DNA from: a virus
Taxonomy: Duplodnaviria > Heunggongvirae > Uroviricota > Caudoviricetes
Length of the DNA stretch: 16,071 nucleotides
IMG/VR virus record: IMGVR_UViG_2711768058_000013
Location: 1-16,071 of that record
Reading direction: 5' to 3' (one strand)
Part shown: positions 1-14,847 of the stretch, piece by piece
How positions within the stretch are numbered: position 1 is the stretch's first letter
Layout of the letters: each line of letters opens with the position of its first letter
The notes under the pieces: generated by a model
What the model was told of the DNA's origin: nothing
Seen by the model: only the letters and a program-made list of their open reading frames with translations
Databases searched by the model: none
Position numbers and translations under genes: made by a program

Positions 1-1050
1 TCATGTCAGGCTCTCACGAATCTCCCTGACAGTCTGAGCAAAACGTTCTGATTCCAGTTCAACACCAGTTGCACGACGCCCGAGCGCCATAGCCGCCTTT
101 ATGGTTGAGCCAGAACCCATGAAGAAATCCGCCACCATGTCACCAGGACGACTGCTCGCGCTGATTATCTGCTGCAGCATTTCTGCCGGTTTTTCGCACG
201 GATGTTTCCCGGGATAGTACTGCACCGGTTTATGCGTCCACACATCCGTGTACGGCACCTGCGCCGTCACGCCAAAATACCGCCGCAGATGCTTATATTC
301 ACTCTGCAGTTCCGCATACTGCCGGTTCAGTGAAGTATACGTCTCCAGCAGCTGGTGGTGGGGCTTTTCCAGTTCACCCCGCTGATGCTTCTCTTCTGCC
401 ACCCGGGCAAACAGCGCCTGTAATTTCAGATAATCGCTTTCGTTCGGCAGCTGCCACTGACTGGCACTGAACCAGTGCGACACCATGTTTTTCTTTCCTG
501 TGGCTTCGGCAATCTGTTTTGCCGTTATACCCAGTTCGGCACGAGCATCCCTGAAATACGATATCAGCGGTGCCATTATGTGCTGTTTGAGTTCCCTTTC
601 TTTTTCCGCATAGACGTCACTTTTGCCGCGATATGGCCCCTGGTAATGTTCAGCAAACAGAACGCGCTCTGTAGCGGGGAAATATGCCCGCAGGCTTTCT
701 TTATTACACCCGTTCCATCGTCCGGACGGCTTCGCCCAGATGATATGGTTAAGCACGTTGAAACGTTCACGCATCATGATCTCGATATCAGATGCGAGGC
801 GATGTCCACAGAACAGGTAAAGGCTTCCGGCAGGTTTCAGTACCCGCCAGAACTGGGCCAGACAGAGGTCCAGCCACTTCAGGTAATCTTCGTCCCCTTT
901 CCACTGATTGTCCCAACCGTTGGGCTTCACTTTGAAGTACGGCGGATCGGTAACTATCAGGTCAATGGAATCATCAGGCAGGGACTGAATAAAATGCAGG
1001 CAATCAGCGTTGATTAAATCAACACTGTTTATTTTTACAGTATTTTTCAT
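1..1050 (-). CDS. Orphan DNA N6-adenine/N4-cytosine methyltransferase (beta-class amino-methyltransferase)
   Basis: 349-aa ORF with stop at 1-3 and ATG at 1048-1050. Motif IV (IVTDPPYF) near the N-terminus and the AdoMet-binding motif I (DFFMGSGST) near the C-terminus, the beta-class order. No adjacent restriction endonuclease is recognisable. Position matches the yfdM-like methylase of CPS-53-type prophages (recollection). Confidence 0.85.
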   Translation of the reverse strand: MKNTVKINSVDLINADCLHFIQSLPDDSIDLIVTDPPYFKVKPNGWDNQWKGDEDYLKWLDLCLAQFWRVLKPAGSLYLFCGHRLASDIEIMMRERFNVLNHIIWAKPSGRWNGCNKESLRAYFPATERVLFAEHYQGPYRGKSDVYAEKERELKQHIMAPLISYFRDARAELGITAKQIAEATGKKNMVSHWFSASQWQLPNESDYLKLQALFARVAEEKHQRGELEKPHHQLLETYTSLNRQYAELQSEYKHLRRYFGVTAQVPYTDVWTHKPVQYYPGKHPCEKPAEMLQQIISASSRPGDMVADFFMGSGSTIKAAMALGRRATGVELESERFAQTVREIRESLT

Positions 1051-1200
1051 GGATCAGTAAGCGTAACTCTGGTAGGCTCACTCTGCTTTTGCGCTAAAGC
1101 AGTGGGCCGTGGTTCGCTTGTGACCAGTAAGCATGAGCGAATGGCTGGCAGGTGCTACCAACACCCACCAGCCGCCCATTTTCACAGCAGGAAACCGCCA

Positions 1201-1404
1201 TTACTGGCAGCGTCTGAATTTATTCCCGTACCCGCCGTTATCCTTCGCCAGACCCGCCAGAACTAACTGAGTCAGTATTAACTGGCACCGGGCTTCGCTT
1301 ACTCCGGTAGTTCTCGTCATCATGCATGGCGTTACCCACTTGTCAGCAGGTAAGAAATGAAGGACTGCGGCGGCGGTTTCTGTCATATCTTGCTGTTTTA
1401 GCAT
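1201..1404 (-). CDS. Hypothetical small prophage protein, possibly winged-helix-like
   Basis: 75-codon ORF in the track (1201..1428). The internal ATG at 1402-1404 is preceded by a GAAGGG Shine-Dalgarno-like sequence about 9 nt upstream; the ATG at 1428 has none. No recognisable family. Confidence 0.4.
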   Translation of the reverse strand: MLKQQDMTETAAAVLHFLPADKWVTPCMMTRTTGVSEARCQLILTQLVLAGLAKDNGGYGNKFRRCQ

Positions 1405-1520
1405 GTCTTTTTCCCTTCTGGTTAACATGACATACCAATAACTCTTGTCTAAAAAGCCAGCAAGATAAAAAGTCAGTATTCACGACCACCAGCGTGTTTA
1501 CTGTACTGCACCAAGTTTAC

Positions 1521-1548
1521 AGGTACAAAAAACCGCTCAGCGGCTGGT
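1521..1548 (-). terminator. Putative intrinsic terminator on the minus strand (hairpin plus T6)
   Basis: Read on the minus strand: AGCCGC-TGA-GCGGTT stem-loop (4 GC pairs plus G.U and A-T) followed by TTTTTT (complement of the A-run at 1527-1532). Lies between cassette 1 and the late-strand small gene. Confidence 0.35.
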
Positions 1549-1663
1549 TTAAGTTGTGTGGCGAAGTAACCACTCTTAACACGATACAATAGTTTTTGCG
1601 TACGCGTTAGTGGTTATGTAAACTTTCTCCATATAAAAACAGCAAAGAAGCGGATATTTTGAA

Positions 1664-2233
1664 ATGGCTACACTGGACGCATTCAGTAGAGTAATAACTC
1701 ATCATACTATTACGATCGATACACAATACCGTACACAGAAAATTGATGATAGCATCAGATCGAACTGTGTTTGCCCGGTACCAACAATGCGTGAACTTGC
1801 TTCTAAAATAGTACGTTGTAAAGCAATGATGCACAGTTATGAAAAAGGAGACTTAGTTTTAACTTTGCAAGATGTAATCTTCTTATCAAACAGAGCCGAT
1901 AAAAAACCCAGCCATCTTGGTCTTTTAATTAATGCTGTAGATAAAAATGGAAGCACTACTGTGTTAAAAAACATTAATACAGATGTTCGTACCGAAATAT
2001 CACCAAAACATGAGGAAGGTGAAGGTTACGAAGTTTCTTCTCATATGATTATTTCTCTAGACGGAAATATGCGAACCTATGACATGAGTTTTATGCCAAT
2101 ACCAGGAGTTTCCACAGCAAAAATAAATGGTTTCCTGAATAAAGTTCTCTTTAACGTAGCCAAAGATAATGAAGATATCTTTTCATGTAACACTTTAACA
2201 AATGAAGTATCAAGTTTAACAAAGAAAAAATAA
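1664..2233 (+). CDS. Hypothetical protein, AT-rich cargo (cassette 1, ORF A)
   Basis: 189-aa ORF, low GC compared with flanking phage genes, ATG at 1664, on the strand opposite to the flanking phage operon. No recognisable domain. Ends in a Lys-rich tail encoded by an A6 tract. Confidence 0.5.
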   Translation: MATLDAFSRVITHHTITIDTQYRTQKIDDSIRSNCVCPVPTMRELASKIVRCKAMMHSYEKGDLVLTLQDVIFLSNRADKKPSHLGLLINAVDKNGSTTVLKNINTDVRTEISPKHEEGEGYEVSSHMIISLDGNMRTYDMSFMPIPGVSTAKINGFLNKVLFNVAKDNEDIFSCNTLTNEVSSLTKKK

Positions 2234-2283
2234 AAGTATTATACAAGCCAGTCTTTGATATATCTGGAAAGTTAGATGAAGAT

Positions 2284-2691
2284 TTGTTCAATAAAATAAA
2301 TAAAGAAGGACTTTCTGATGTCGTTTTGGTAAAGAATGAATACAGAACTATTAATGCGCCAGATGTTAACGCGGCTATTATTCCTAAAGAAAGTACTTTA
2401 CGCTTAGTACCAAACCATGGCCCCAACAATGTCCTTGGATGGATAAAATCTGTCTCAAACTTCTTTAAAGAAGATAAAAATGGAGGTTATGACTTAATAA
2501 AAATAAAATTCAAAGAGCCAGAGACAGGATTCACAAGACAAGTTGACCTTCAAACTTCAAATGTAAGGCTCGATGGGCTGGAAAAAACATTTATCAAAAA
2601 GAGTGTAATAAATGGTTTTTCTTCGCGCTTAAAGGATTCTTATGATAGTATTAACATGGAGTTTGTGAATAAGATTATCGAGGTCATGTGA
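2284..2691 (+). CDS. Hypothetical protein (cassette 1, ORF B), possibly the frameshifted C-terminal part of ORF A
   Basis: 135-aa ORF with no ATG start (first start codon is TTG at 2284 with a weak RBS). Its frame is open back to 2206, overlapping the last 28 nt of ORF A. The stop at 2689-2691 is followed by GAGG and the ATG of ORF C. Confidence 0.45.
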   Translation: MFNKINKEGLSDVVLVKNEYRTINAPDVNAAIIPKESTLRLVPNHGPNNVLGWIKSVSNFFKEDKNGGYDLIKIKFKEPETGFTRQVDLQTSNVRLDGLEKTFIKKSVINGFSSRLKDSYDSINMEFVNKIIEVM

Positions 2692-2698
2692 GGCTAAT

Positions 2699-3274
2699 AT
2701 GATTAGTATATTTTCACATTTATTTAGACCGTTTGGTTACCTTTTTATTAAGGGAATTAGTGGTAAGTGCGCATACGATTTTTATGCACCTGCAGGGCTT
2801 GCTGTGATTTCTTTTTTTTACTTTTATTTATTTAAAATACCCACATCAGACCTACTAAAAGATGGCGGCTTTATTAAGTCTATATCTGGATTTGTATCAA
2901 ATCTGCCAGGTTTTTATATAGCAGCTCTTGCAGCAATAGCCACTTTCAACAGAGAACAAATTGACTACCCTCTGATAGGAACTAATGGCACGCCTTTTAT
3001 TAAAATTACACGAACAAAAGAAAATGGTAGAATTGTTGACACTCAAGAGAAACTTACCAGAAGATTATTTCTGTGCATGTTATTTTCATTTTTAACTGCC
3101 CTCAGCATATGCATAGTGATTTTCAACGCTTTTATCACACCACTAATAAACATACTGAATAATGATATAGCAAACTGGTGCTATATCATTATCTTTTTAT
3201 TCCTTACATGGCAAATGCTTGTTTCAACATTTTTTGGACTATACTATCTTGGTGATAGGATTCACATTAATTAA
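2699..3274 (+). CDS. Integral membrane protein, about four predicted TM helices (cassette 1, ORF C)
   Basis: 191-aa ORF with GAGG RBS 6-7 nt upstream of ATG 2699. Four long hydrophobic stretches (AGLAVISFFYFYLF; FYIAALAAIATF; LFLCMLFSFLTALSICIVIF; WCYIIIFLFLTWQMLVSTFFGLYYL). Its 3' end overlaps the convergent Q gene by 8 bp. Confidence 0.6.
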   Translation: MISIFSHLFRPFGYLFIKGISGKCAYDFYAPAGLAVISFFYFYLFKIPTSDLLKDGGFIKSISGFVSNLPGFYIAALAAIATFNREQIDYPLIGTNGTPFIKITRTKENGRIVDTQEKLTRRLFLCMLFSFLTALSICIVIFNAFITPLINILNNDIANWCYIIIFLFLTWQMLVSTFFGLYYLGDRIHIN

Positions 3275-3644
3275 CTACCATAATGGGGTTTATAGTTATT
3301 ATTACACCGCTGATAAACCCCATGGCAGTCTGCAATTCCTTCCTAATTGTGCCATCTGAACATCTTCTCTTCTTGGCAATAGTGCGTAATGAGATACCAA
3401 TAACAAAGTGAGCTATGATCAGCTCATATTCCTCTGGTTTATACTTTCGCAACCGAGCCACACAACCGTCTATCATGATGCCTTCATCATCATCACACTG
3501 GAGACGTGACTTTTTACCGTGTGGTAAAAGTCCCTTGAAACCAGCCGCTATCGGCTGCCAGTCCACACCACTATTTTCTGCTGCAGCCCATGCTCCCCAG
3601 CGGTCCAATACTTCATACATATCACGCATCAGCTTTCTCCACAA
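3267..3644 (-). CDS. Late-gene antitermination protein Q (QuuD-like short Q family)
   Basis: 125-aa ORF. The N-terminal WGAWAA motif, the Cys-containing middle and the C-terminal HTH-like segment resemble, as I recall it, the short Q antiterminators of E. coli prophages (DLP12 QuuD type). Last gene of the coupled minus-strand operon. Confidence 0.75.
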   Translation of the reverse strand: MWRKLMRDMYEVLDRWGAWAAAENSGVDWQPIAAGFKGLLPHGKKSRLQCDDDEGIMIDGCVARLRKYKPEEYELIIAHFVIGISLRTIAKKRRCSDGTIRKELQTAMGFISGVIITINPIMVVN

Positions 3645-3646
3645 AA

Positions 3647-4642
3647 TCAGGCCAGCACGCCAATTGCCAGCGCACGATCGATAAAACGAAATATCAGCTC
3701 CAGCTGGGAGCCATACTTCTCTTCAAATGCCACGGTATCCGCATGCAGCTCGTCGTGATGCTTTCTGCACAAAGGCAACACAAAAAGGTCATGCGCTTTT
3801 GTTCCCATTCCACCCTGACCGTGACCTATCAGGTGGTGGGGATCATCAGCGGGCTTTCCACAACATGCACACGGCTGTGTCTTAACCCAGCGCGTGTACT
3901 TTTCATTAACCCAGCGGCGACGTTTTGGGCGTAACATAAAAGACTCCGGCGACTCCGGATCCACTTTCAGCGCCAGCACCTTTTTCGCTTTATTCTGGAT
4001 GATGCTGGTGGCCGGAACCGAAGGAACAAGGTCACTCTCCCGGGTGACAGACGGCACAACAGGCTTCGGTAATCTCAGTGCCTTACGGGCTGCACTTTCA
4101 GGTAAGGCATCCGCCAGATCATTACGAACCAGCCACCAGCACAGTTCCGGCATTGTCACAACGTGACTGTCATCAAAACCGAGATCCCGACGCACGACAG
4201 ACAACACCCAGCGGGCACAGTTATCCGTTGCCATTGATTCCAGCCGTTCCGTGAACTGATCGCGCAGCTGGTTATCGCAGTGCCAGCACAGACGGATTGC
4301 GCCCGGCGCGTGACGCATTGTGGTCATGTTCTCGCTGTGCCAGTCGGAATGAGGCCACTGGCAGCCTTTTTCACGAAGTAACCAGCTTTCAAGACATTCC
4401 ACGCCACCAGCACGACGGATCACTGCCTCATTGCGGAACACGGCCCGAACGGCAGGATCATCCGCCAGCGGTTGTGATGCCGCCGGAACAGCACCACTGG
4501 CGAAAGATGAATAACGTTCCGGCTCAGGCTCCAGCAGGACACGCCCCTGCATAAACAGGGGCATCAGCTCTGAACCTGGTCTGAACAATACGATCCCCAT
4601 ACGCGGGGCAATTTCAGGGGTCAGTAGTGCTCTCACGGTCAC
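3647..4642 (-). CDS. DUF968-like prophage protein (YdfU family) with C-terminal Cys/His cluster
   Basis: 331-aa ORF with C-terminal CACCGKP...HHLIGHG...H...LCRKHHDELH metal-binding-like cluster. Sits between the KilA-N gene and Q as in Nin-region equivalents. Family name is from memory. Confidence 0.55.
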   Translation of the reverse strand: MTVRALLTPEIAPRMGIVLFRPGSELMPLFMQGRVLLEPEPERYSSFASGAVPAASQPLADDPAVRAVFRNEAVIRRAGGVECLESWLLREKGCQWPHSDWHSENMTTMRHAPGAIRLCWHCDNQLRDQFTERLESMATDNCARWVLSVVRRDLGFDDSHVVTMPELCWWLVRNDLADALPESAARKALRLPKPVVPSVTRESDLVPSVPATSIIQNKAKKVLALKVDPESPESFMLRPKRRRWVNEKYTRWVKTQPCACCGKPADDPHHLIGHGQGGMGTKAHDLFVLPLCRKHHDELHADTVAFEEKYGSQLELIFRFIDRALAIGVLA

Positions 4643-4643
4643 C

Positions 4644-5486
4644 TCAATGAACGGTATCGAGCAGCTTTAACAGCTCAGGGAATCGGGATTCGAAGAAATG
4701 CGGCTGCGTCTCGCGCGGATTTGCGGGACTGGTGATGTTCTTGCCAAACATGCAACCTTTCGCTGTCAGCGACCAGAATTTTTTGATGTTGTTAATCGCG
4801 GTACGGCTGTATCGTTCGCGTTGTTCAACGATCCCCAGCTTCGCCATCTGGTGATATGCCTGATTAGCCGTCAGGCGGATACCATACTGTTTCAGCAGTG
4901 CACTCAGTGACAGTGTAGGACGACTTGAGCCATCGTGTGCATCAGCAGGAGCATCAATGGCATAGCGCGGTGCCAGATTCGGTAAGCCAACAGCCTCCTG
5001 AAGTTTCTGACAGGCACCAAGCACTGATGAGTTAGACAGATTTAACTCCCGGCGCATAAAGTCCAGCAGAATCACGCCAGCCTGCATCTTGTCAGCAGCC
5101 TGCCAGGATAATTTTTCCGGTGCGCTGGTTACCATGTCGAAAGTGCGGATCACCTTCAGATGGAATGACGGGCTGATCCACATTGCATAGGCATACACCA
5201 GGTCCTTACAGACATATGTTCCGCCATTCCGCCCTTCTATTTTACTGACAGGTTTACTACCCAAATTTTGGGTAGTTTCATTGAATGAACCGACACCCAG
5301 ATTTTGGGTATCGATCAATTCCTGAACCAGCTCAGTAATCTGTTGGCTGGAAAGAAACTTTCCCGGCTCCTTGGTTCTGGCATTTGCACCAGATGCTACT
5401 GCTGCGCGATGCAGATCGTTCAGGCTGTAACGCCCATAAGCATCACGACGAACTTCAATACCATCAATGACCATCAGATTATTCAT
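4644..5486 (-). CDS. KilA-N domain-containing protein
   Basis: 280-aa ORF. N-terminal region (SLNDLHRAA..., GGTYVCKDLVYAYAMWISPSFHLKVIR) resembles the KilA-N DNA-binding domain. Tightly packed with neighbouring genes. Confidence 0.6.
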   Translation of the reverse strand: MNNLMVIDGIEVRRDAYGRYSLNDLHRAAVASGANARTKEPGKFLSSQQITELVQELIDTQNLGVGSFNETTQNLGSKPVSKIEGRNGGTYVCKDLVYAYAMWISPSFHLKVIRTFDMVTSAPEKLSWQAADKMQAGVILLDFMRRELNLSNSSVLGACQKLQEAVGLPNLAPRYAIDAPADAHDGSSRPTLSLSALLKQYGIRLTANQAYHQMAKLGIVEQRERYSRTAINNIKKFWSLTAKGCMFGKNITSPANPRETQPHFFESRFPELLKLLDTVH

Positions 5487-5505
5487 ACTTCGTTTCTCCT
5501 CTTAA

Positions 5506-5895
5506 TCAGGCGGCTGCACCCGCCGTTTTCTCGTACTTACTGATAGTGATCTCGACCTTCCCTTCCGGGATAACCGGTCCCCACTCCACCAGCATTCTTT
5601 TCACCTGACTGTCGTCTTCCCACACCCCCGCGTGGGTCAGGGCGTCAAACAGCGCCTTGTTATAGTTGTCCAGATCGCGGATCCGGTTATCCGGAGGAAA
5701 CAACACGATCTCCACTGAAGCAGGTGCCGACGTTGGTTTTGGCAGACGACGTAACTGCTCAACTATTGCTGCACACGCCGCGCTCTGGAATTTTCGCCCC
5801 GCCGCGCTTATCAGGCTCTTACCAGCAAACGCCCCTTTGTTGGGGTGTCGCCAGTACGTGTTCACGCTGGGCGGAAAAGGCAGGATCAGCTTCAT
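5506..5895 (-). CDS. rusA: Holliday junction resolvase RusA
   Basis: 129-aa ORF with the RusA-type motif RIRDLDNYNKALFDALTHAGVWEDDSQV (catalytic Asp cluster). Start ATG overlaps the stop of the upstream gene (ATGA). Confidence 0.8.
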   Translation of the reverse strand: MKLILPFPPSVNTYWRHPNKGAFAGKSLISAAGRKFQSAACAAIVEQLRRLPKPTSAPASVEIVLFPPDNRIRDLDNYNKALFDALTHAGVWEDDSQVKRMLVEWGPVIPEGKVEITISKYEKTAGAAA

Positions 5896-6218
5896 ACTTT
5901 CAGGCCCCTCTCATGTAACCAGTGGACTGCACGCAGTCTGGCGTTTTCCTCACCGGCAAGCAGTGCGCGGATAATCCCGGCTGCCTCACTGTCGTCATCC
6001 TTCACTGTGGTATGAAGCGTGATACCCCGGGCCACGCCACGCTTTATCGTGATGACGCCTTTTTTCTCCAGTGCGCGAAGATGCTCCACCGCTGCATTCA
6101 CCGAACGGTATCCCAGCATGGTTGCCACCTCCTGATTGGTTGGCGGGAAACCACGTTCTTTCTGATAAGAAATCAGCATATCCAGCACCTGCTGCTGGCA
6201 TTGAGTTAACGTCGTCAT
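5892..6218 (-). CDS. LexA-type DNA-binding domain protein, no S24 peptidase domain
   Basis: 108 aa from ATG 6216-6218, which overlaps the TAA of the upstream gene (TAATG). LTQCQQQVLDMLISYQKERGFPPTNQEVATMLGYRSVNAAVEHLRALEKKGVITI matches the LexA N-terminal winged-helix pattern. The track ORF extends to 6251 without an ATG. Confidence 0.6.
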   Translation of the reverse strand: MTTLTQCQQQVLDMLISYQKERGFPPTNQEVATMLGYRSVNAAVEHLRALEKKGVITIKRGVARGITLHTTVKDDDSEAAGIIRALLAGEENARLRAVHWLHERGLKV

Positions 6219-6712
6219 TAAGCCCCCACGTAATTCCCTGACAGATACCACTCTTCACCCGATGCAGCACGCTTGCTGCTTTTCCGTAAGCACTGCTCAC
6301 GACGAGCCAGAAAATTGTTTCGTTCTGGCTGGGAGTGGCTTTCTCGGAATGCCGCCATCCACACCGTTGCAGCACGACGGTATAAGCCCCTGGACTCCAG
6401 TTCTTCAGCCTGGCGGGTCAGGCACAAAATCACCCGTGGATCGTTAGTGCCGACATAGAAATTGCGCACAGATCTGGTTTCACGAACTGGTTGTGGCTCC
6501 GGCCCCTGCGCTCTCTCAGTCAGGCGCGGGAAATGTCTGCGTGTATCTCCTTCACAACGGTGAGCCACACTCCCACTCTGACGTAACTTGCTTGCTGACT
6601 GCAGAACGCGCTGCCGTGAGTAATCTGCAAAAGCATCCGCAATGTCTCCGGAAGTACAGCCCGGATGGGCTTCAATGAATTTCTGAACTTCATTCAAAAG
6701 ACTCATGCTCAC
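6218..6712 (-). CDS. yfdN: PerC-family transcriptional regulator (yfdN-like)
   Basis: 164-aa ORF. AEELESRGLYRRAATVWMAAF...RREQCLRK resembles the PerC/Pch signature (AExLExxGLWRRAAxRW). 164 aa equals the length I recall for K-12 YfdN. Start overlaps the stop of the O-like gene. Confidence 0.5.
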   Translation of the reverse strand: MSMSLLNEVQKFIEAHPGCTSGDIADAFADYSRQRVLQSASKLRQSGSVAHRCEGDTRRHFPRLTERAQGPEPQPVRETRSVRNFYVGTNDPRVILCLTRQAEELESRGLYRRAATVWMAAFRESHSQPERNNFLARREQCLRKSSKRAASGEEWYLSGNYVGA

Positions 6713-7650
6713 CCCCTGAATCCTGCCGGGATCTGGCTGTAGTCCACATTGTCGTAACTGGCTTTGAAGTACGGGTCTTCGCGTTTTTCTGTGTACGTGC
6801 TGACGGACGGCGATAAGCGCAGGGAAAGCTCATCCCATTTTTCCCGCAGCTTCGACGGGCTGAGCACGTTACGGCACCAGAACGGATCGCGGCTGACGCG
6901 GCTGTACATCTCGCAGATTTGTTTGTGAGTACGACCATCCTGCACACACATCAGGCGAATTTCGTTTGCCCAGGCTGTCCAGTTCGGTTCTTTGGGACGA
7001 ACCACCTCGCCGTCACATTCGGCGGCCTGCTCGTACAGGGCGATGATTCTTTTCCAGAGCCACTGTGCGCAGGTCAAATCATCCTGCGTTCCCCACTGGC
7101 GCTTTTTAGGGCTGAATACAACCGCATCAGGATGGCGAGTTAAAAACTCCTGTTCAGCCGTCTGCGTGTCCGGTTGCGAAGCGTCCGGACGAGAAGTTTT
7201 TTTATCTGACGGATCATGTTTTGATTTTACTGACGGATCCCCGCCAGATTCTGACGGGTGAAAACCCGCTTTTTTGCCAGATTTCGACGCATCAAATTTT
7301 GACGGGTCAGATTTTGATGTGTCAGATTTTGACGGGTCATAATCTGACAGTTGAGAAAATGCCGCTGCCTGAAGCTTCGCAACGTTAAGCTGATAAACAT
7401 TCGACGCATTGCGGTTACCCTGGCGACGCGCCTTACGCGTTAACCAGCCTTCTGCTTCCAGCCGTGCGATAGCCGTTCTGACGGTACTCATCCCCGCGCC
7501 AATCTGACGGGCAATAGTTTCAATTGATGGCCAGCACACACCTTCGTCATTACTGAAATCAGCCAGGCGGGCCATAATTGCCACGCTGGATAATTTCATG
7601 CCTGATGCAGCGCAACCATCCCATACATAGCCGGTTAATTTAGTGCTCAT
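6709..7650 (-). CDS. Phage replication initiator, O-like (yfdO-like), with internal origin iterons
   Basis: 313-aa ORF with N-terminal winged-helix (SSVAIMARLADFSNDEGVCWPSIETIARQIGAGMSTVRTAIARLEAEGWL), a central low-complexity K/S/D/P-rich linker encoded by DNA iterons, and a C-terminal domain. Analogous to lambda O, where ori lies inside the gene. Confidence 0.7.
   Translation of the reverse strand: MSTKLTGYVWDGCAASGMKLSSVAIMARLADFSNDEGVCWPSIETIARQIGAGMSTVRTAIARLEAEGWLTRKARRQGNRNASNVYQLNVAKLQAAAFSQLSDYDPSKSDTSKSDPSKFDASKSGKKAGFHPSESGGDPSVKSKHDPSDKKTSRPDASQPDTQTAEQEFLTRHPDAVVFSPKKRQWGTQDDLTCAQWLWKRIIALYEQAAECDGEVVRPKEPNWTAWANEIRLMCVQDGRTHKQICEMYSRVSRDPFWCRNVLSPSKLREKWDELSLRLSPSVSTYTEKREDPYFKASYDNVDYSQIPAGFRG
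7204..7352. repeat. Iteron array, about 8 direct repeats of a 15-bp unit (consensus near GATTTTGACGGGTCA); putative prophage origin
   Basis: Copies include atctgacggatca, ttttactgacggatcc, agattctgacgggtg, agatttcgacgcatca, aattttgacgggtcag, attttgatgtgtcag, attttgacgggtcat, aatctgacagttg. Located inside the O-like coding sequence. Confidence 0.65.
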
Positions 7651-7998
7651 GACCGACCTCTACTTCCCTGAATTTACGACGAAACTGTTCGAGCGGGCTG
7701 AAGCACTCATGCTCATAGCCTTCGCGGAGGTAGATAACTCGTTGTGTTTCCGGCTCCCAACGAATGACTCTGACGGGCACTCCGTAGTGATCTTTGAACC
7801 AGCGGTTAACTTGTCGCAAAGGACTGTCTCCTTCTGCCGGTTGAAATCACCCACAGCCCACTCAGCAAAGCTGTGGGTTACAATTTCCCTGTCACCTGGT
7901 ACATTAACTGCATAGCAATACTCCACCTTCGCTTTTCCACCCGGTACAGGAAGCGCAATCAGTTGCGAGCGACGGTAGTGTGTTGTTAAACTGTTCAT
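7640..7998 (-). pseudogene. Small gene split between two reading frames (frameshifted gene or two nested small genes)
   Basis: Frame A: ATG 7996-7998 overlaps the stop of the upstream CII-like gene and runs to 7660 (112 aa, C-terminal half low-complexity). Frame B: open from 7846, AAGGAGA Shine-Dalgarno (complement of 7827-7833) plus TTG 7817-7819, stop TAA 7640-7642 overlapping codons 3-4 of the O-like gene. Both frames are translationally coupled to a neighbour. Confidence 0.4.
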
Positions 7999-8603
7999 GC
8001 GTTAGTTTCTCCACAGTCACGACACGCCACGGCGCCCGGAGCTGCACACTCGCGGGCGTCATTACTTTCTGAAATGCAAAAGATTTTGTAGACCAGTGCT
8101 GCATGCTCCTGCAGCTTCGAAATTGAGAGATACAGCTCGTCGTTAATTGCTGTCTTCTCATGCGGTTCCACCACACCGTCTTCGATTGCCGAACGAATCT
8201 GTCTGGAATAACTGCCAATCTGTTCAATGACTTCCAGCAGGCGCTGGTTAATATCGGCGTTGTCCACATCCTCGACGTCAGGAAGAGACACAAAGACGCC
8301 ATTTGCAGACTGCGCCACAGCGTCAGCAATGAAGTGAGTTCCACCAGCACGTTGCAAAATCATTGCCCATCCCAGCGGGAAAATCTGATCGCCATCGGCA
8401 CGAAGGCGGTTAAATAATGCGTTTTCTGTTACATCCAGCCAGTCAGCTGCTTCAGCGTAACCACCCGGCAACGCTGCGATAGTTTTTCTGACAGCTTTCA
8501 CGTACCACTCAGGCTGTTTTTCTACTTTCCAGTGATGCTTACCCACGGTTAGCCTCATCGTTCTGTGGTTTCTGTTAATCGATTTATCCATTAGATTTTT
8601 CAT
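7995..8603 (-). CDS. CII-like lysogeny regulatory protein (CP76/YdaT-type), putative
   Basis: About 200 aa. Sits immediately downstream of the cro-like gene, overlapping it, and upstream of the replication gene, the canonical cII position. ATG at 8603 or 8591; the track ORF extends to 8660. Family assignment is from weak recollection only. Confidence 0.45.
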
Positions 8604-8784
8604 AAAGCTCAGGTTTAAATGGCAACCGTCCGCAAGTTCTATATGCAGCTTCTGCTGCACGTCCTTTTGGAATTAACTGGCCCGGACGGTTTCGCCACTG
8701 ATAAACGGCTTCAGTTGTTATGCCGAAAAAAGCAGCAACTTTCTCAATACTGCCGAAGTAGCTTTCGATATCGTCAGTTGTCAT
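8584..8784 (-). CDS. cro: Cro-type HTH repressor (Cro/YdaS-like)
   Basis: 66-aa ORF, divergent from the cI-like repressor across a 97-bp operator region. HTH-like segment FFGITTEAVYQWRNR. Confidence 0.7.
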   Translation of the reverse strand: MTTDDIESYFGSIEKVAAFFGITTEAVYQWRNRPGQLIPKGRAAEAAYRTCGRLPFKPELYEKSNG

Positions 8785-8881
8785 ACGCCCTCCAAACTAA
8801 GTTTTATTAGATGCTAATTACAAATCTATCTTTGGTCAATAAAAACTAAGATTACTTAGCAATTCAAGAAATGGTGCTCCT
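8785..8881. promoter_or_regulatory. OR-like divergent promoter/operator region between cro and cI
   Basis: 97-bp AT-rich intergenic region. Operator-like repeats AACTAAG at 8795-8801 and 8844-8850; the second lies in the palindrome CTAAG-ATTA-CTTAG (8846-8859). The same heptamer recurs downstream of cI. Confidence 0.6.
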
Positions 8882-9508
8882 ATGGAAACGGTTGGTCAGC
8901 GTATAAAAGCTCTGAGAAGAGTTACCGGAACGTCCCAGAAAGAATTGGGTAAATTTTGTGGAGTAAGCGACGTTGCTGTGGGGTACTGGGAGAAAGACAT
9001 CAATACCCCTGGTGGGGAGGCACTTTCGAAATTAGCGAAGTTCTTCAATACGTCAATAGATTACATTCTTTATGGTGCTGAGTTTGAAGGCAAACTCGTC
9101 ACAAACATGCGCAGAGTTCCTGTAATATCGTGGGTTCAGGCTGGGCAGTTTACTGAGTGCAGGGCAGCAGAAGTGTTTAGTGAAGTGGACAAGTGGGTAG
9201 ATACATCATTAAAGATTGGTGATAACTCATTTGCATTAGAGGTTAAAGGTGACTCCATGACTAACCCTAATGGCCTCCCAACAATACCAGAAGGCGCAAC
9301 AGTGATTGTAGATCCAGATGCAGAACCTCGTCATGGAAAAATAGTCATCGCTCGACTTGATGGAACAAACGAAGCTACAGTAAAAAAATTAGTCATCGAT
9401 GGCCCTCAAAAGTTTTTAGTGCCATTAAATCCTCGGTATCCCAACATCCCTATCAATGGTAATTGCCTTATCATTGGTGTAGTCAAAGGAGTTCAATACG
9501 AACTCTAA
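8882..9508 (+). CDS. cI: CI-type prophage repressor (XRE HTH plus S24 LexA-like autopeptidase domain)
   Basis: 208-aa ORF. N-terminal HTH (QRIKALRRVTGTSQKELGKFCGVSDVAVGYWE), C-terminal S24 motifs with catalytic Ser in GDSM and Lys in ATVKKL. Divergent from cro. Confidence 0.85.
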   Translation: METVGQRIKALRRVTGTSQKELGKFCGVSDVAVGYWEKDINTPGGEALSKLAKFFNTSIDYILYGAEFEGKLVTNMRRVPVISWVQAGQFTECRAAEVFSEVDKWVDTSLKIGDNSFALEVKGDSMTNPNGLPTIPEGATVIVDPDAEPRHGKIVIARLDGTNEATVKKLVIDGPQKFLVPLNPRYPNIPINGNCLIIGVVKGVQYEL

Positions 9509-9517
9509 GACCTCTCT

Positions 9518-9590
9518 TCTCTAACTAAGGCACCGAACTAAGAAAAGTTTGGTGTTTTCTCTTGCCATAATAACTAAGTTAAGTTAGATT
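9518..9590. promoter_or_regulatory. OL-like operator cluster downstream of cI
   Basis: Three further copies of AACTAAG (9523-9529, 9536-9542, 9572-9578) in the AT-rich spacer between the cI stop and the next plus-strand ORF, in the position equivalent to lambda OL/PL. Confidence 0.45.
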
Positions 9591-9693
9591 TTATATCAAA
9601 AATAACGAACAGGCAGGACGCCCACGAAGTAGCCGCCTGGGGCATATGAAGTCCAGGATGATTCGTTGAGTCATGTTGTGCCACTAGGCACTC

Positions 9694-9990
9694 ATGTTAA
9701 AGCAGGTGTATGAAATGAAAGTCCAGATTTTAAACAATAGTGGTGAAGTCGTTTGGTCATACGACATAGCCGCCCATGTAGATCAGAGCGGCGATAGCTG
9801 GGCCAATGGGAAACATCAGATTATGGCTGGAGTTGTGTTCTCTTTACGCCGTGCTTTGGAACAGGCTGAAGTATTTCCATCAGACCCTGAATGGAAATGG
9901 CCTTTTTCTATTTGTCCAAATTCGGAGAGCACATTTCAGAAAATTGGTCAGAAAGTCGCACTCGAAGAGCATCAGCCAACTGTTTCCTGA
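9694..9990 (+). CDS. Hypothetical protein, first gene of the putative leftward early operon
   Basis: 98-aa ORF. The in-frame ATG at 9715 has a better RBS (AGGTG 6 nt upstream) and may be the true start. No recognisable family. Confidence 0.5.
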   Translation: MLKQVYEMKVQILNNSGEVVWSYDIAAHVDQSGDSWANGKHQIMAGVVFSLRRALEQAEVFPSDPEWKWPFSICPNSESTFQKIGQKVALEEHQPTVS

Positions 9991-10003
9991 TTTTTTCAGG
10001 TAA

Positions 10004-10153
10004 CTAGTCGGCATCGCAGAAACAACAACGCTCGATCATGTTGAAAGCCGATTCGTAGAACTGTTTCTGCTGAGTGTCGCTGAGACAGGAAAAGAGCGAC
10101 GTTACGATGATTTTATTAATTGCATTATCAAGTTCTTTTTCATCAAAAGTCAT
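10004..10153 (-). CDS. Possible small protein (49 aa) not in the ORF track
   Basis: Manual translation of the minus strand: MTFDEKELDNAINKIIVTSLFSCLSDTQQKQFYESAFNMIERCCFCDAD. AAGGA Shine-Dalgarno 7 nt upstream of ATG (complement of 10161-10165). Below the usual length cutoff. Confidence 0.3.
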   Translation of the reverse strand: MTFDEKELDNAINKIIVTSLFSCLSDTQQKQFYESAFNMIERCCFCDAD

Positions 10154-10408
10154 TTGATTTTCCTTTTATGTATACGGGCTTAAAAGGATACCACCGAGCC
10201 TGAAGTGGTGAAAAGACAGGCACATAACAGCTAAGTATTTTCAACCAGAGAGAATCCTTAGCGTTGTGGTGAATGCGGCTCAGCGCACGCGGGTTAAGGT
10301 TGAGGCTGACAGTCGACCTTCTGTGGATACCCACCCGTCTGGTGTGCAACCTTCGCCAGGCACCGGGAGGCACCCGGCACCACAACTTTATGCTGTGTGT
10401 AGTCCTGG

Positions 10409-10455
10409 CGGTACCAGTTTGTACCCTTGCTTCCGGCTGGTACCGTCCTTTTTAC
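10409..10455 (+). terminator. Putative intrinsic terminator or structured RNA element
   Basis: Inverted repeat CGGTACCAG (10409-10417) / CTGGTACCG (10437-10445) followed by TTTTT (10449-10453). The 19-nt loop is long for a terminator. Lies in a GC-rich segment with no convincing coding frame. Confidence 0.35.
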
Positions 10456-10590
10456 AAAACAGAGAAGAGCATCACCGGACGACGGGCTCATAACCCAATC
10501 CATCCGGGCGGCTGCCACCGCAGGTGTTCTTCTCTGTTTTGTGGAGAAACTAATCGGCCTTGCAGGGTCGATATGATGAGGAGCAGCAAA

Positions 10591-10953
10591 ATGGCTAGTG
10601 AACGCAGTACTGATGTGCAGGCATTTATCGGGGAGCTGGACGGCGGCGTATTTGAAACCAAAATCGGCGCAGTTCTCAGTGAAGTCGCTTCCGGTGTGAT
10701 GAACACGAAAACCAAAGGTAAGGTCTCACTCAACCTGGAAATCGAACCATTTGATGAGAACCGTGTGAAAATCAAACACAAACTCTCATATGTTCGCCCG
10801 ACTAACCGCGGGAAAATTTCCGAAGAAGACACCACCGAAACGCCGATGTATGTCAATCGCGGTGGTCGCCTGACTATTCTGCAGGAAGACCAGGGACAAT
10901 TACTGACTCTTGCCGGTGAACCTGACGGAAAACTACGCGCAGCAGGTCATTAA
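10591..10953 (+). CDS. yfdP: YfdP-like prophage protein, function unknown
   Basis: ATG 10591 with GAGGAG Shine-Dalgarno 7 nt upstream gives 120 aa, the length I recall for K-12 CPS-53 YfdP, and it sits directly upstream of a yfdQ-like gene. The track ORF start at 10273 lies in non-coding-looking GC-rich sequence. Confidence 0.6.
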   Translation: MASERSTDVQAFIGELDGGVFETKIGAVLSEVASGVMNTKTKGKVSLNLEIEPFDENRVKIKHKLSYVRPTNRGKISEEDTTETPMYVNRGGRLTILQEDQGQLLTLAGEPDGKLRAAGH

Positions 10954-11018
10954 TATCGTTCTTAATTAACTGATTATTTATCTCATCACTGAATATCTTT
11001 ATATAGTGAGGACTTATT

Positions 11019-11843
11019 ATGTCTCAGAACTTAGACGCAACCGCAATTAATCAAATCCATGCCCTTATTTCTGCTCAGGGTGTTAATGAAATTATCAGTA
11101 AGATTGGTGCCGATGCTGTGGCATTGCCTGAGAATTTCCGCATTCATGATCTGGAAAAATTTAATTTAAATCGTTTCCGTTTCCGTGGTGCGCTTTCCAC
11201 TGCCAGCATCGATGACTTTACCCGTTATTCTAAAGATCTTGCAGATGAAGGCACCCGCTGCTTTATCGATGCCGATAATATGCGTGCCGTCAGTGTGCTT
11301 AACCTGGGTACCATTGATGAGCCAGGTCACGCAGATAACACTGCCACTCTCAAACTGAAAAAGACAGCACCGTTCTCTGCCCTGTTGTCTGTTAACGGCG
11401 AGCGTAACTCCCAGAAGTCACTGGCAGAATGGATTGAAGACTGGGCCGACTACCTTGTGGGCTTTGATGCTAATGGTGACGCTATTCAGGCAACAAAAGC
11501 GGCTGCGGCAGTCCGTAAAATCACGATTGAAGCAAACCAGACCGCTGATTTTGAAGATAATGACTTCAGCGGCAAACGCTCCCTGATGGAATCTGTCGAA
11601 GCGAAGACCAAAGACATTATGCCAGTGGCATTTGAATTTAAATGCGTTCCGTTTGAAGGTCTGAAAGAACGTCCGTTTAAATTACGCCTCAGCATTATCA
11701 CTGGCGATCGTCCTGTACTGGTTCTGCGCATTATTCAGCTGGAAGCGGTGCAGGAAGATATGGCTAACGAATTTCGTGATCTGCTTGTTGAGAAATTCAA
11801 AGACAGCAAAGTAGAAACCTTTATTGGTACTTTCACCGCCTGA
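11019..11843 (+). CDS. yfdQ: YfdQ-like protein (DUF2303 family), function unknown
   Basis: 274-aa ORF with GAGGA RBS. Length and position (between yfdP-like and yfdR-like) match my recollection of K-12 CPS-53 yfdQ. Confidence 0.7.
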
Positions 11844-11855
11844 TTTCATTACTGC

Positions 11856-11880
11856 AAATGCCCCTGCGGGGGCATTTATG
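11856..11880 (+). terminator. Putative intrinsic terminator downstream of the yfdQ-like gene
   Basis: AAATGCCCC-TGCG-GGGGCATTT: 9-bp stem with GC-rich core and short U-tract (TTTAT), 13 nt after the stop codon. Confidence 0.4.
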
Positions 11881-11970
11881 GAAACGTAATTAACTCAATA
11901 ATCACCGGATGGTGATGGCTTCCTTTTACCCAAACTCAGCGCGGTGCAGCGCATATACGTGGAGAACAAA

Positions 11971-12507
11971 ATGTCATTTATTAAAACTTTTTCCGGGAAG
12001 CATTTTTATTATGACAAGATAAATAAAGACGACATCGTGATTAACGATATCGCGGTTTCCCTTTCAAATATCTGTCGCTTTGCAGGGCATCTTTCACACT
12101 TCTACAGCGTCGCCCAACATGCGGTGCTTTGCAGCCAGCTGGTGCCGCAGGAATTTGCTTTTGAAGCGTTAATGCATGATGCAACAGAAGCATATTGCCA
12201 GGACATCCCTGCACCACTGAAACGACTTCTTCCTGACTATAAACGGATGGAAGAAAAAATAGACGCCGTAATCCGTGAGAAATACGGGTTACCTCCTGTT
12301 ATGAGCACGCCAGTGAAATATGCCGATCTCATTATGCTGGCAACCGAACGTCGCGATCTCGGGCTTGATGATGGCTCTTTCTGGCCTGTACTGGAAGGCA
12401 TCCCGCCAACAGAGATGTTCAAAGTTATTCCACTGTCGCCAGGCCATGCCTACGGGATGTTTATGGAACGCTTTAACGGGTTATCGGAGTTACGCAAATA
12501 CGCATGA
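11971..12507 (+). CDS. yfdR: HD-domain phosphohydrolase (YfdR-like 5'-deoxynucleotidase family)
   Basis: ATG 11971 with GGAGA RBS gives 178 aa. HD motif (SVAQHAV...ALMHDATEAY). The length I recall for K-12 YfdR is also 178 aa. The track ORF starts at GTG 11944. Confidence 0.7.
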   Translation: MSFIKTFSGKHFYYDKINKDDIVINDIAVSLSNICRFAGHLSHFYSVAQHAVLCSQLVPQEFAFEALMHDATEAYCQDIPAPLKRLLPDYKRMEEKIDAVIREKYGLPPVMSTPVKYADLIMLATERRDLGLDDGSFWPVLEGIPPTEMFKVIPLSPGHAYGMFMERFNGLSELRKYA

Positions 12508-12541
12508 GTCTTTCAACTGCACAACCACTGGAGGGATAGCA

Positions 12542-12736
12542 ATGAACAACTTAATGACAACTAAACAGGTCGCCGACTTCTGTGGCGTTTCAGTATCAAC
12601 AGTACTTCGTTGGAACAGCGTAAACAGGAGGACTGGCCAGAAATACAGACCAGATTTTCCAGATCCTGATATAAAATCCTGCCCAAATAAATGGGCATCA
12701 CACAAGATTTATAGGTTTGCGGGTGTTATTGAGTAA
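12542..12736 (+). CDS. Excisionase / AlpA-family HTH protein (Xis-like)
   Basis: 64 aa from ATG 12542 with GGAGGG RBS 6 nt upstream. TTKQVADFCGVSVSTVLRW is the typical AlpA/Xis (MerR-like) HTH signature. Confidence 0.7.
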   Translation: MNNLMTTKQVADFCGVSVSTVLRWNSVNRRTGQKYRPDFPDPDIKSCPNKWASHKIYRFAGVIE

Positions 12737-12750
12737 GGTAGGTAGCACAG

Positions 12751-12900
12751 ATGTTAACTGACGCTTCTATAACACAAAGCAAACCTAATCTGACTGCACG
12801 CCCTACGCCAGAAACAGATCAAAGTTTAAAATATGCACCGTCCGGAGTGACGATTTTTGTAATATACAGTAGCCTCTATGGGTCATGTGACAGTGTATAG
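12751..12900 (+). pseudogene. Possible remnant of an integrase 5' end (49-aa ORF)
   Basis: Manual translation MLTDASITQSKPNLTARPTPE...: the first 12 residues fit the conserved N-terminus of P4-type integrases (L-T-D-x-x-I-x-x-x-K-P), after which similarity is lost. Lies 15 bp downstream of the excisionase. Confidence 0.3.
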
Positions 12901-12911
12901 GAAAAACAGAA

Positions 12912-13745
12912 GTGATCGATGACCCGTTACCAACGAATTGGAAAGATCTCCAGAACGGAGTCCAACGCATCTTCCGCAATGTTGGCTTATATGCAGAAGT
13001 CGAAGCCAATGTAGAGACTCCACGTGGTTCGGTGAATGTGGATGTTCTCGCAATAGATCCCAAGAGCGTAGATAAAATCAGATACATAGTAGAATGTAAA
13101 AACTGGAGTAACTCTGTGCCTCAGAGCGTAGTCCATTCGTTCACTACGGTGATGCATGAAACTGGGGCTAACATTGGTTTTATTATTTCAAAACATGGGC
13201 TTCAGCAAGGAGCAAAGCAGTATACACAAAACACAAATATCACTGGTATGACATATCTAGAATTTCAAAAGAGATATTTTGAGGCTTGGTGGAAAAGATA
13301 TTTTTGCCCACTTATAGGTGATGCTGCTGACAAGGTTCTTTTATACACTGAAGAATTCAACCATCAGCGAGACCGAGCTTATAGGAATCTTACCCCACAT
13401 AATAAAAAGATGTTTGATGATTTAAGGAGACAGGAAGGTGGCTCAATAATGATTTTATCGATGTTCAACTACATGTCGATATCGAGAGGACTAAAAACAG
13501 GAACATTTTTAAACGTTCCAAAAAGCCTAGATGACTTTAAAGCTATAGTGCTCTCTCAAATAACTCCTCATATCCAATGGAATTGCGACACATTCCGTGA
13601 ACTGTTGAATACGATTTTAAAATACTTAGCAGATATTAAATCAGAATTTGAAATGATATTCGGGGGAGATATTTTTGAACAAACAGATAATATCAGCGGA
13701 GTAACTCTTGATGGTCCTCCTTTGGGAGGGGATATTTATCTATAA
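12912..13745 (+). CDS. Mrr-like PD-(D/E)xK restriction-endonuclease-domain protein with unknown C-terminal domain (cassette 2, gene 1)
   Basis: 277-aa ORF with GTG start. N-terminal NVDVLAID...YIVECKNW...VVHSFTTVMHETGANIGFIISKHGLQQGAKQY matches the Mrr catalytic-domain pattern (D...D...(E/Q)xK...F...G.FI...A). The C-terminal 170 aa are AT-rich and unrecognised. Confidence 0.65.
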   Translation: MIDDPLPTNWKDLQNGVQRIFRNVGLYAEVEANVETPRGSVNVDVLAIDPKSVDKIRYIVECKNWSNSVPQSVVHSFTTVMHETGANIGFIISKHGLQQGAKQYTQNTNITGMTYLEFQKRYFEAWWKRYFCPLIGDAADKVLLYTEEFNHQRDRAYRNLTPHNKKMFDDLRRQEGGSIMILSMFNYMSISRGLKTGTFLNVPKSLDDFKAIVLSQITPHIQWNCDTFRELLNTILKYLADIKSEFEMIFGGDIFEQTDNISGVTLDGPPLGGDIYL

Positions 13746-13835
13746 TTATTAAACTACGCTTAACATTGTCGAATGTTCGATTCATCACTCGAAGCAGAAA
13801 TAAATCAACCTTTTATTTCTAATTAGGAATTTTTA

Positions 13836-14777: not shown

Positions 14778-14847
14778 TATGAAAGCCTTTGGAATGACAG
14801 CCAAGACATTTAACCAGATTCATCTGCTCATTAATCAAAGCAAATTG

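Follow-up and report, generated by a model that had tools for sequence, protein, structure and literature searches.

In the antiterminator Q systems that have been studied, the Q-binding elements (QBEs) lie in the -35/-10 region of the late promoter PR', and this promoter canonically stands directly after Q; the name Q21/Q933W for the PF06530 family of Q proteins stems from the same work (Yin et al., bioRxiv 10.1101/651190). Another layout is present in prophage DLP12 of Escherichia coli K-12 (quuD-nmpC-essD) and in Lambda_ev207, where a convergent porin gene separates the Q homologue from a TAAGAGTGGTTAC block by about 1.67 kb. Lambda qsr'/p4 hybrids that grow on the Q-nmpC-lysis segment of DLP12 are a classical demonstration that a Q of this kind (class C in the grouping used below) works across such a gap, and the record 434B is one of these hybrids. 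The present analysis concerns the late switch encoded in a stretch of 16,071 nucleotides from a tailed virus of the class Caudoviricetes (IMG/VR record IMGVR_UViG_2711768058_000013, positions 1 to 16,071; referred to as the window). The window corresponds to the half of a lambdoid prophage with the early and regulatory genes, and its operon genes read on the minus strand. It shares several features with the Q21/Q933W cassettes of phage 21, 933W and Sp5: the protein belongs to PF06530, the promoter block is homologous to the mapped PR' of Sp5, its -35/-10 spacer region holds an element specific to the class, the initial transcribed region is conserved, a hairpin terminator follows early, and the genes downstream (methylase, tRNAs, lysis) correspond. 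Unlike the canonical arrangement with PR' directly after Q, 1.66 kb of convergent cargo lies in between. The Q-dependent late switch very probably exists in two separate parts here, with Q and its cognate PR'/Q utilisation (qut) block at 1527 to 1609 held apart by a cassette that represents PDC-M53, a candidate anti-phage defence system listed by PADLOC. DLP12 and Lambda_ev207 differ from this locus in their class C Q, in the associated element (TTTACGTACGTAAAAA), in carrying a single porin gene instead of a defence system and in the low cargo diversity within the sample.

A preliminary description made from the sequence alone had stated that the Q stop lies within the 3' end of a convergent membrane-protein gene and that no late promoter is present next to Q. 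Both statements hold. According to the listing of open reading frames (ORFs), Q and the 191-residue membrane ORF (2699 to 3274, plus strand) overlap tail-to-tail by 8 bp at 3267 to 3274, where the palindrome TTAATTAA provides a TAA for each strand, i. e. the Q stop at 3267 to 3269 (minus) and the stop of the membrane gene at 3272 to 3274 (plus). The 21-nt promoter core TAAGAGTGGTTACTTCGCCAC (1558 to 1578, minus) and the 16-nt upstream element TAACGCGTACGCAAAA (1594 to 1609, minus) each occur as a single copy in the window, with none in 1664 to 3266. Instead of following Q immediately, the core starts 1688 bp past the Q stop.

The PR'-like block is located beyond the cassette at 1610 to 1526 on the minus strand (CTAACGCGTACGCAAAAACTATTGTATCGTGTTAAGAGTGGTTACTTCGCCACACAACTTAAACCAGCCGCTGAGCGGTTTTTTG), with its main elements in 1527 to 1609. 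It contains the sequence TAACGCGTACGCAAAAA (1593 to 1609, -35 to -19), which resembles a QBE, is specific for class A, overlaps the weak -35 position and may be bound by Q. This is followed by the -10 hexamer TATCGT (1581 to 1586), which aligns with TATCAT of the Sp5 PR', by the late start at A1574 predicted from homology to the mapped Sp5 start, and by the conserved initial transcribed region AGTGGTTACTTCGCCACACA (1555 to 1574), a candidate for the sigma-dependent pause and the Q-loading segment. The comparison with related phages that had been proposed for finding PR'/qut was carried out and led to this block at 1527 to 1609, which is homologous to the Sp5 PR' and aligns with the DNA directly after Q in VT2-Sakai/Sp5. 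In phage 1720a-02, a related Q is followed by 40 bp, GCGCGGTCCGCAAAAAGTATGTCAGTATGTTAAGAGTGGTTACTTCGCCACAC, a hairpin with a T7 run and the same small ORF and DNA methylase gene. Stx2_112808 and 1720a-02 both harbor the same block 40 bp past Q and lack the cassette, and in cassette-free relatives as a whole the block follows Q after 17 to 40 bp. This arrangement, with an intact cognate block on the far side of the cassette, supports the proposal that insertion of the cassette separated Q from its target. From -12 to +20, one consensus is common to all classes, in which AGTGGTtaCTTcGcCAC is nearly invariant and +1 to +20 is the most conserved part. Within the -10 hexamer, conservation of T-12, A-11 and T-7 reaches at least 90% in all three classes, and their distance from the start is the one that the mapping in Sp5 predicts. 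At none of the conserved positions does the window block deviate from the consensus of class A.

The start position was transferred from Sp5, whose PR' start was mapped by differential RNA sequencing (dRNA-seq), along with a 3' end 258 nt downstream and an RNase E cut GU|AUU at +173 (Sy et al., PMC7547250; the coordinates given there are those of NC_002695.1 and do not match NC_002695.2). On VT2-Sakai (L005), the start was set at position 2960, the A of TAAG[A]GTGG, which makes +258 the last T of the terminator T-run (3217) and puts GUAUU at +172 to +176. Because the end of the T-run and the RNase E site are both reproduced independently, the coordinate transfer is sound. The offset of 142 bp between the two NC_002695 versions was assumed on the basis of the stx2A coordinates in version 1 and then validated by the two landmarks. 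Within the initial transcribed region, compared between the window (1555 to 1574) and 101 related leaders, T or C at +7 co-varies with C or A at +14 (GGTTACTTCGCCAC versus GGTCACTTCGACAC). An RNA hairpin at +2 to +17 (GUGGU/GCCAC) was considered as well and rejected, since the common variant pair +7 T>C and +14 C>A breaks a G-C pair with no compensation. As the co-varying pair would not restore RNA pairing, the conservation of +1 to +20 more likely reflects a function at the DNA level or recognition by a protein.

The association of Q and promoter was followed across at least 256 loci encoding Q relatives, which were collected from phage records and three IMG/VR scans and sorted by the closest Q reference; one further class A match with unrelated upstream sequence was set aside as false. 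Class A comprises the window-like Q proteins (82-99% identical). Its element TAACGCGTACGCAAAA was found in 73 of 73 resolved loci, always more than 500 bp downstream of the Q stop, with 625 to 2964 bp of cargo and not a single adjacent case, and it is single-copy in 77 of 85 class A loci. Class B (1720a-02/cdtI-like) goes with CGCGGTCCGCAA (59/59), which is adjacent at about 40 bp in 35 loci and displaced in 24. In class C (DLP12 quuD/Lambda_ev207), all 72 resolved loci possess TTTACGTACGTAAAAA about 1.67 kb away with a convergent porin gene in between, while the 933W/Sakai type (VT2-Sakai) is represented by two resolved loci with TTTACGATCGTAAAAA adjacent at 17 bp. Taken together, Q class and upstream element agree in 206/206 resolved loci, despite the mosaic DNA between them and although the leader past +20 is shared between Q classes. 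This pairing is read as selection for a matched Q/QBE pair, as the association is unbroken across 43 unrelated cargo clusters and shared leaders, and it agrees with the location of QBEs in the -35/-10 region of the promoters studied so far. The preliminary description had implicitly treated the split layout as an anomaly. With 0/73 adjacent loci in class A, a displaced block is in fact the rule, and a distant site in intact relatives is what the preliminary description itself had named as evidence against its reading.

The first candidate terminator of the late leader is a hairpin with the stem-loop AGCCGC-TGA-GCGGTT and a T6 run at 1527 to 1545 on the minus strand (stem 1545 to 1531, T6 1532 to 1527), corresponding to +30 to +48. 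A hairpin with T6 at 1521 to 1548 had been noted previously and suggested to be a displaced tR'-like terminator. Stem and T-run are indeed real, and the tR'-like assignment is reasonable in view of the position at +30 to +48 and of the related leaders; termination there may be inefficient given the read-through in Sp5 described below. A GC-rich hairpin with a T-run ends at +41 to +60 in 87/101 distinct leaders, which contain 44 hairpin sequences, some with non-homologous stems. Because the hairpin position is kept even with non-homologous stems, a conserved termination function can be argued. Beyond the hairpin, the leader continues into a small conserved protein (phrog_331; 1201 to 1428, minus, likely start ATG at 1404), which is the first gene downstream of PR', and then into an N6/N4 DNA methyltransferase (1 to 1050, minus; PF01555, E 1.3e-42) as the second. 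The gene order around the small ORF is identical in 1720a-02, cdtI, Stx2a_1447 and the E. coli JMF1 prophage. Folding of the whole leader (1429 to 1574) was no better than for shuffled sequences (z-score (z) -1.46) and gave no sign of a structured 146-nt RNA. A search upstream of the small ORF for a counterpart to the Sp5 terminator at +258 yielded just a remnant, GCTGGCTTTTT at about 1457 to 1467, with no matching upstream arm. An Rfam search of 1000 to 3800 at E<=1 gave no match, and a tRNA search retrieved none. Just after the mapped tR' of Sp5 (VT2-Sakai about 3228 to 3337), the 3'-terminal part of a methylase gene (..KAAMALGRRAIGVELESGRFEQTVREVQNVVSQNG*) is present, which is homologous to the C-terminus of the window methylase. 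Sp5 hence seems to have arisen by deletion from an arrangement of PR', small ORF and methylase as in the window.

Several points weigh against a split yet functional switch. A1574 was carried over by homology from Sp5, whose Q shares just 45% identity with that of the window. The promoter has a poor -35 region (TAACGC), and no clean TAnnnT pause element was found in +1 to +20, where the window has TACTTC at +7 to +12 as compared to TACATT in Sp5. Q and the element are situated within 3 kb of each other, and linkage could partly explain their association. Moreover, the left end of the window falls in the methylase gene, and its own late genes would lie beyond. Finally, the window hairpin is weak, with a folding free energy (dG) of -6.9 kcal/mol and z -1.7. 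Its counterpart in Sp5 is stronger (dG -12.6) and is evidently read through without Q, as the 258-nt StxS precursor is made in vivo even from a plasmid-borne PR' in the absence of Q (PMC7547250); the hairpin may hence not be the main Q-controlled terminator.

These last observations lend weight to an alternative in which the promoter is assigned correctly, but the hairpin at 1527 to 1545 acts as a leaky attenuator or forms part of the leader structure, with the Q-controlled terminators located further downstream, for example, after the methylase gene. The hairpin of the window is weak and the stronger one of Sp5 is passed, with transcripts that end at +258 (PMC7547250). Furthermore, no second terminator is predicted before 1428, and in the record of phage Ayreon an annotated terminator separates the methylase from the holin. 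On the other hand, a hairpin and T-run that persist in most of the leaders with non-homologous stems are what selection for termination predicts. We consider this alternative to be possible, if somewhat against our expectation; if it is true, some weak expression of the small ORF and the methylase would be expected in the lysogen. The element at 1527 to 1545 is probably the first terminator of the late leader, possibly a leaky or partial one.

As another explanation for the missing promoter next to Q, the preliminary description had offered an orphaned Q in a defective prophage. In such a case, insertion of the cassette would have destroyed or removed the target, and the downstream block would be a non-functional relic. 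Besides the lack of a promoter adjoining Q, the frameshift in the first cassette gene, which shows some decay, and the absence of lysis and structural genes from the window speak in its favor. Yet, the prophage of E. coli JMF1, which is 99.4% identical and shows 3 differing positions only over 1001 to 3700 (one of them being the A-run deletion at about 2224), continues past the methylase gene with three tRNAs, a NanS-like esterase, holin, lysozyme, Rz, an HNH protein and the small terminase subunit. Genes for an S24 repressor, a CII-like protein, a replication protein and an integrase are present in the window as well. The same split layout is common to cdtI, mEp460_4F5, Lambda_ev207, PhiR55_1 (host E. 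coli C) and vB_EcoS-716R3, and it is also found in Klebsiella phage P7641 and in the Shiga toxin (Stx) phages Stx1_499 and Stx2a_1447. Because the late region of JMF1 is complete and phages that were isolated or induced have the same arrangement, the orphan hypothesis was rejected. Plaque-forming or inducible phages with an identical layout, an intact block in full agreement with the class A consensus, and a Q/element pairing kept over 73 loci with more than 40 cargos leave it highly improbable.

A third possibility would be an unrecognized Q-dependent promoter right after Q (about 3100 to 3266), antisense to the membrane gene, from which late transcription runs through the cassette. Minus-strand hexamer pairs resembling sigma-70 promoters are present at 3214 to 3185 and 3189 to 3162. 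Such pairs occur at chance level, however, with 9 matches in 1000 to 3800 versus 8.2 +/- 3.0 in shuffled sequences, and they are accompanied neither by a Q-binding-like element nor by a conserved initial transcribed region. In addition, the DNA following Q is wholly different between cargo types, and no conserved site is therefore possible there. This scenario is extremely unlikely. The generic sigma-70 scan of 1000 to 3800 also missed the promoter block at 1527 to 1609, the -35 of which is weak.

For the split switch, the following course of events can be proposed. PR' at 1574 would probably be constitutive as in Sp5, and its product in the lysogen would be a leader that is short and terminated. 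Once the prophage is induced, Q produced from the early transcript may diffuse to the TAACGCGTACGCAAAAA element 1.69 kb away and load on RNA polymerase paused in the conserved +1 to +20 segment. The modified polymerase could then pass the hairpin at +30 to +48 as well as any terminators that follow, and so reach the small ORF, the methylase gene, and the lysis and morphogenesis genes past the left end of the window. The cassette, being placed upstream of PR' and pointing away from it, would remain outside the late operon and could be expressed on its own in the lysogen. The data show the homology of the block, its single copy, the co-variation of Q class and element, the diversity of the cargo and the intact late region of JMF1; in this scheme, we infer Q binding, pausing, the exact start, the efficiency of the terminator and the mechanism of cassette exchange.

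Q itself (3267 to 3629, minus) belongs to subclass A of the Q21/Q933W family, as supported by PF06530, phrog_79 and the RefSeq annotation in JMF1. From ATG 3629, which is preceded by a GGAG Shine-Dalgarno sequence and is the start annotated by RefSeq for the identical Q gene in JMF1, it comprises 120 residues; the open frame reaches a TTG at 3644. The PF06530 match (E 2.8e-45) spans residues 6 to 118 of 125 and profile positions 1 to 113 of 118, and residues 13 to 91 show a weak sequence match to the Q21 structures 6P18/6JNX (E 0.0045). The gene is located at the end of the delayed-early operon, in which rusA (5506 to 5895), a KilA-N protein (4644 to 5486), a DUF968/HNH protein (3647 to 4642) and Q follow one another on the minus strand, with the late genes coming next in JMF1. 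Class A Q proteins end about 10 to 15 residues earlier than those of classes B and C. All of them also lack the ..LD(V/I)RLEMD.. segment that is present in classes B, C and 933W. In the alignment, their conservation stops at the motif GF(I/V)xG, with G113 as the last conserved residue, and the 4 to 12 residues beyond it vary by cargo type, each type having its own tail. In the window, this variable C-terminal tail (VIITINPIMVVN, 3270 to 3305, minus) goes with the cassette, and the GC content drops here. It is 0.30-0.35 between about 3330 and 1650, as compared to about 0.5 before.

In many relatives, a classic bidirectional terminator with A-tract, GC-rich stem and T-tract is found 0 to 40 nt past the Q stop, at the place where the window has the gene overlap and a perfect 11-bp inverted repeat (ATGGGGTTTAT/ATAAACCCCAT, 3283 to 3323, both strands). 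The latter lies inside the 3' end of Q, 9 nt past the stop of the membrane gene, and folds on both strands (plus: dG -18.4, z -2.6; minus: dG -24.1, z -3.5) with no T-run. It is a candidate for a 3'-end hairpin or a transcription barrier between the convergent genes. A second repeat, a perfect 14-bp AT-rich inverted repeat at 3159 to 3192, occurs in the coding region of the membrane gene about 80 nt before its stop, and CTTTTTATTC follows it on the plus strand. It folds far more stably than shuffled sequences (dG -16.4, z -5.4; other strand -17.6, z -5.8) and is missing at the equivalent place in the homologues L065, L055 and L051.

The cargo of the window is a 1.66 kb low-GC cassette with three plus-strand ORFs that represent the two genes of PDC-M53 and are transcribed towards Q. 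PDC-M53B (2699 to 3274) is the 191-residue membrane protein mentioned above and matches the PADLOC profile PDLC04699 over its full length (E 1.7e-54) as well as phrog_8257. PDC-M53A (1664 to 2691) is split into the ORFs 1664 to 2233 and 2284 to 2691, which cover residues 1 to 188 and 207 to 340 of phrog_9879. Their PADLOC scores amount to 5.4e-16 and 9.5e-12, as compared to 1.3e-31 for the intact JMF1 protein. Adjacent A (about 320 residues) and B (about 190 residues) profiles were thus both detected, and the locus resembles other PDC-M53 systems in gene order and size (A about 320 to 340 residues, B about 190 residues and membrane-embedded), apart from the frameshifted A gene. The cause is a deletion of one nucleotide in an A-run at about 2219 to 2224, with A6 here versus A7 in JMF1 (342 residues). 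Possible reasons for this difference are an error in sequencing, genuine decay of the gene, or phase variation of a defence gene by way of its homopolymer. To our knowledge, PDC-M53 is a computational candidate only, and we know of no experiment on it.

Comparison of the DNA between Q stop and element in 80 loci revealed 43 clusters with a GC content of 0.29 to 0.43 and nearly all ORFs on the strand opposite to Q. In a scan of 80 representative proteins, matches were obtained to Kiwa (KwaA/KwaB), PD-Lambda-5 A/B, PDC-M53 and type II methyltransferases, and further matches include GmrSD, RelA/SpoT, HEPN, AAA_15/21, NA37 and a porin. The interval from Q to PR' is a slot that is recurrently occupied by cargo. 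Since the Q tails differ with the cargo, the swappable module extends from inside the 3' end of Q (the last roughly 12 codons) to the -35 edge of PR', and recombination in the conserved flanks is the probable route by which one cassette replaces another. In other genomes, the cassette type of the window, together with the same Q tail, occurs with at least four different variants of the leader hairpin, which indicates recombination just downstream of the conserved +1 to +20 segment. Klebsiella phage P7641 combines a class A Q, 2.4 kb of convergent cargo and the class A element, and the slot is hence not confined to E. coli. At the other end of the window cassette, a TATAAA on the plus strand (1632 to 1637) is a candidate -10 of the cassette, back-to-back with the PR' -35/QBE-like element (1607 to 1637), and other cargo types likewise show an A/T-rich segment with -10-like hexamers right beside the element. 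This suggests that the cassette promoter and PR' are divergent and possibly interfere with each other.

A more far-reaching idea is that the gap serves as a dedicated slot for defence cargo outside the late operon, with a module that includes the last codons of Q and with a near-universal convergent orientation that would itself be functional. Speculatively, cassette transcription antisense into Q might dampen accidental late firing in the lysogen, an anti-Q effect as exerted by lambda paQ. After induction, early transcription through Q would conversely run antisense to the cassette and might silence the defence genes, and the cassette promoter could be occluded when Q and polymerase sit at PR'. 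We regard this idea as rather doubtful.

Prophages reportedly harbor defence hotspots, such as those of P2 and P4 (Rousset 2022; Vassallo 2022). The slot resembles these hotspots in that alternative defence systems occupy a fixed position in temperate phages and are bounded by conserved phage genes, while phage group and position differ. Lambdoid phages reportedly also possess a 'moron' insertion site downstream of PR' (Juhala 2000). With this site (stx, bor, lom), the slot has in common that low-GC accessory genes reside in the late regulatory region and vary strongly between otherwise similar phages. In contrast to morons, which are located downstream of PR'/tR' and are transcribed in sense or antisense by the Q-modified polymerase, the window cassette (1664 to 3274) lies upstream of 1574 and outside the late operon, and the cargo of the slot almost always points towards Q. 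The position of the moron site downstream of PR' is also given by Tree (2014, PMC4104026). In the 'non-contiguous operon' of phi80 Tai, the Q-controlled late operon is interrupted by a defence gene (PMC11364771). Here, by contrast, the cargo is inserted between the regulator gene and the promoter that it regulates.

Some further variable regions were encountered in the window and its relatives. A second likely cargo or defence spot in the window (12912 to 14777, plus) encodes proteins with an Mrr_cat restriction endonuclease domain and with a HEPN/RES N-terminal domain and adjoins the integrase gene (14848 to 16071); in JMF1, an 'anti-phage dCTP deaminase' takes its place. Phage Ayreon possesses a different Q of 250 residues with its own adjacent lambda-like PR' (TTGCAT-17-TAAGAT, then AACGAT). 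Downstream of this PR', the hairpin AACCCGCCACTGAGCGGGTTTTTT at 3699 to 3737 and 4373 to 4416 flanks a two-gene cargo, which looks like a terminator duplication around a moron. In the Hamiltonella phage APSE-7 (4460 to 6364), the PF06530 Q of the APSE phages is followed by their known variable toxin cassette in the same orientation as Q, and no TAAGAGTGGTTAC-type block was found in this region.

No explicit description of a cargo slot between Q and PR' or of the pairing of Q class and element was found in the literature, with subscription journals largely outside the search. The svsR paper (PMC12803456) is unrelated to the slot, and PMC4587872 has no bearing on this point. The window is an ordinary instance of a recurrent layout, single examples of which, such as DLP12 quuD-nmpC, have long stood in well-known genomes. 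For annotation, the layout constitutes a trap, and in the case of a class A Q, PR'/qut should be sought 0.6 to 3 kb downstream, past the convergent cassette. The location of PR' also matters for predicting which prophages fire late, including those with stx such as Stx1_499 and Stx2a_1447. We know of no biochemical study on the Q proteins of these three subclasses, and their pairing with three elements provides testable candidate QBEs. Bounded by Q codon 113 or thereabouts and by TAACGCGTACGCAAAA, the slot is a compact and easily recognised hotspot that could be mined for new defence systems, as it contains many uncharacterized gene pairs next to the known systems Kiwa, PD-Lambda-5, restriction-modification (R-M) and GmrSD. 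Finally, placement upstream of PR' offers a simple rationale for how cargo expressed in the lysogen may avoid being driven by the late promoter.

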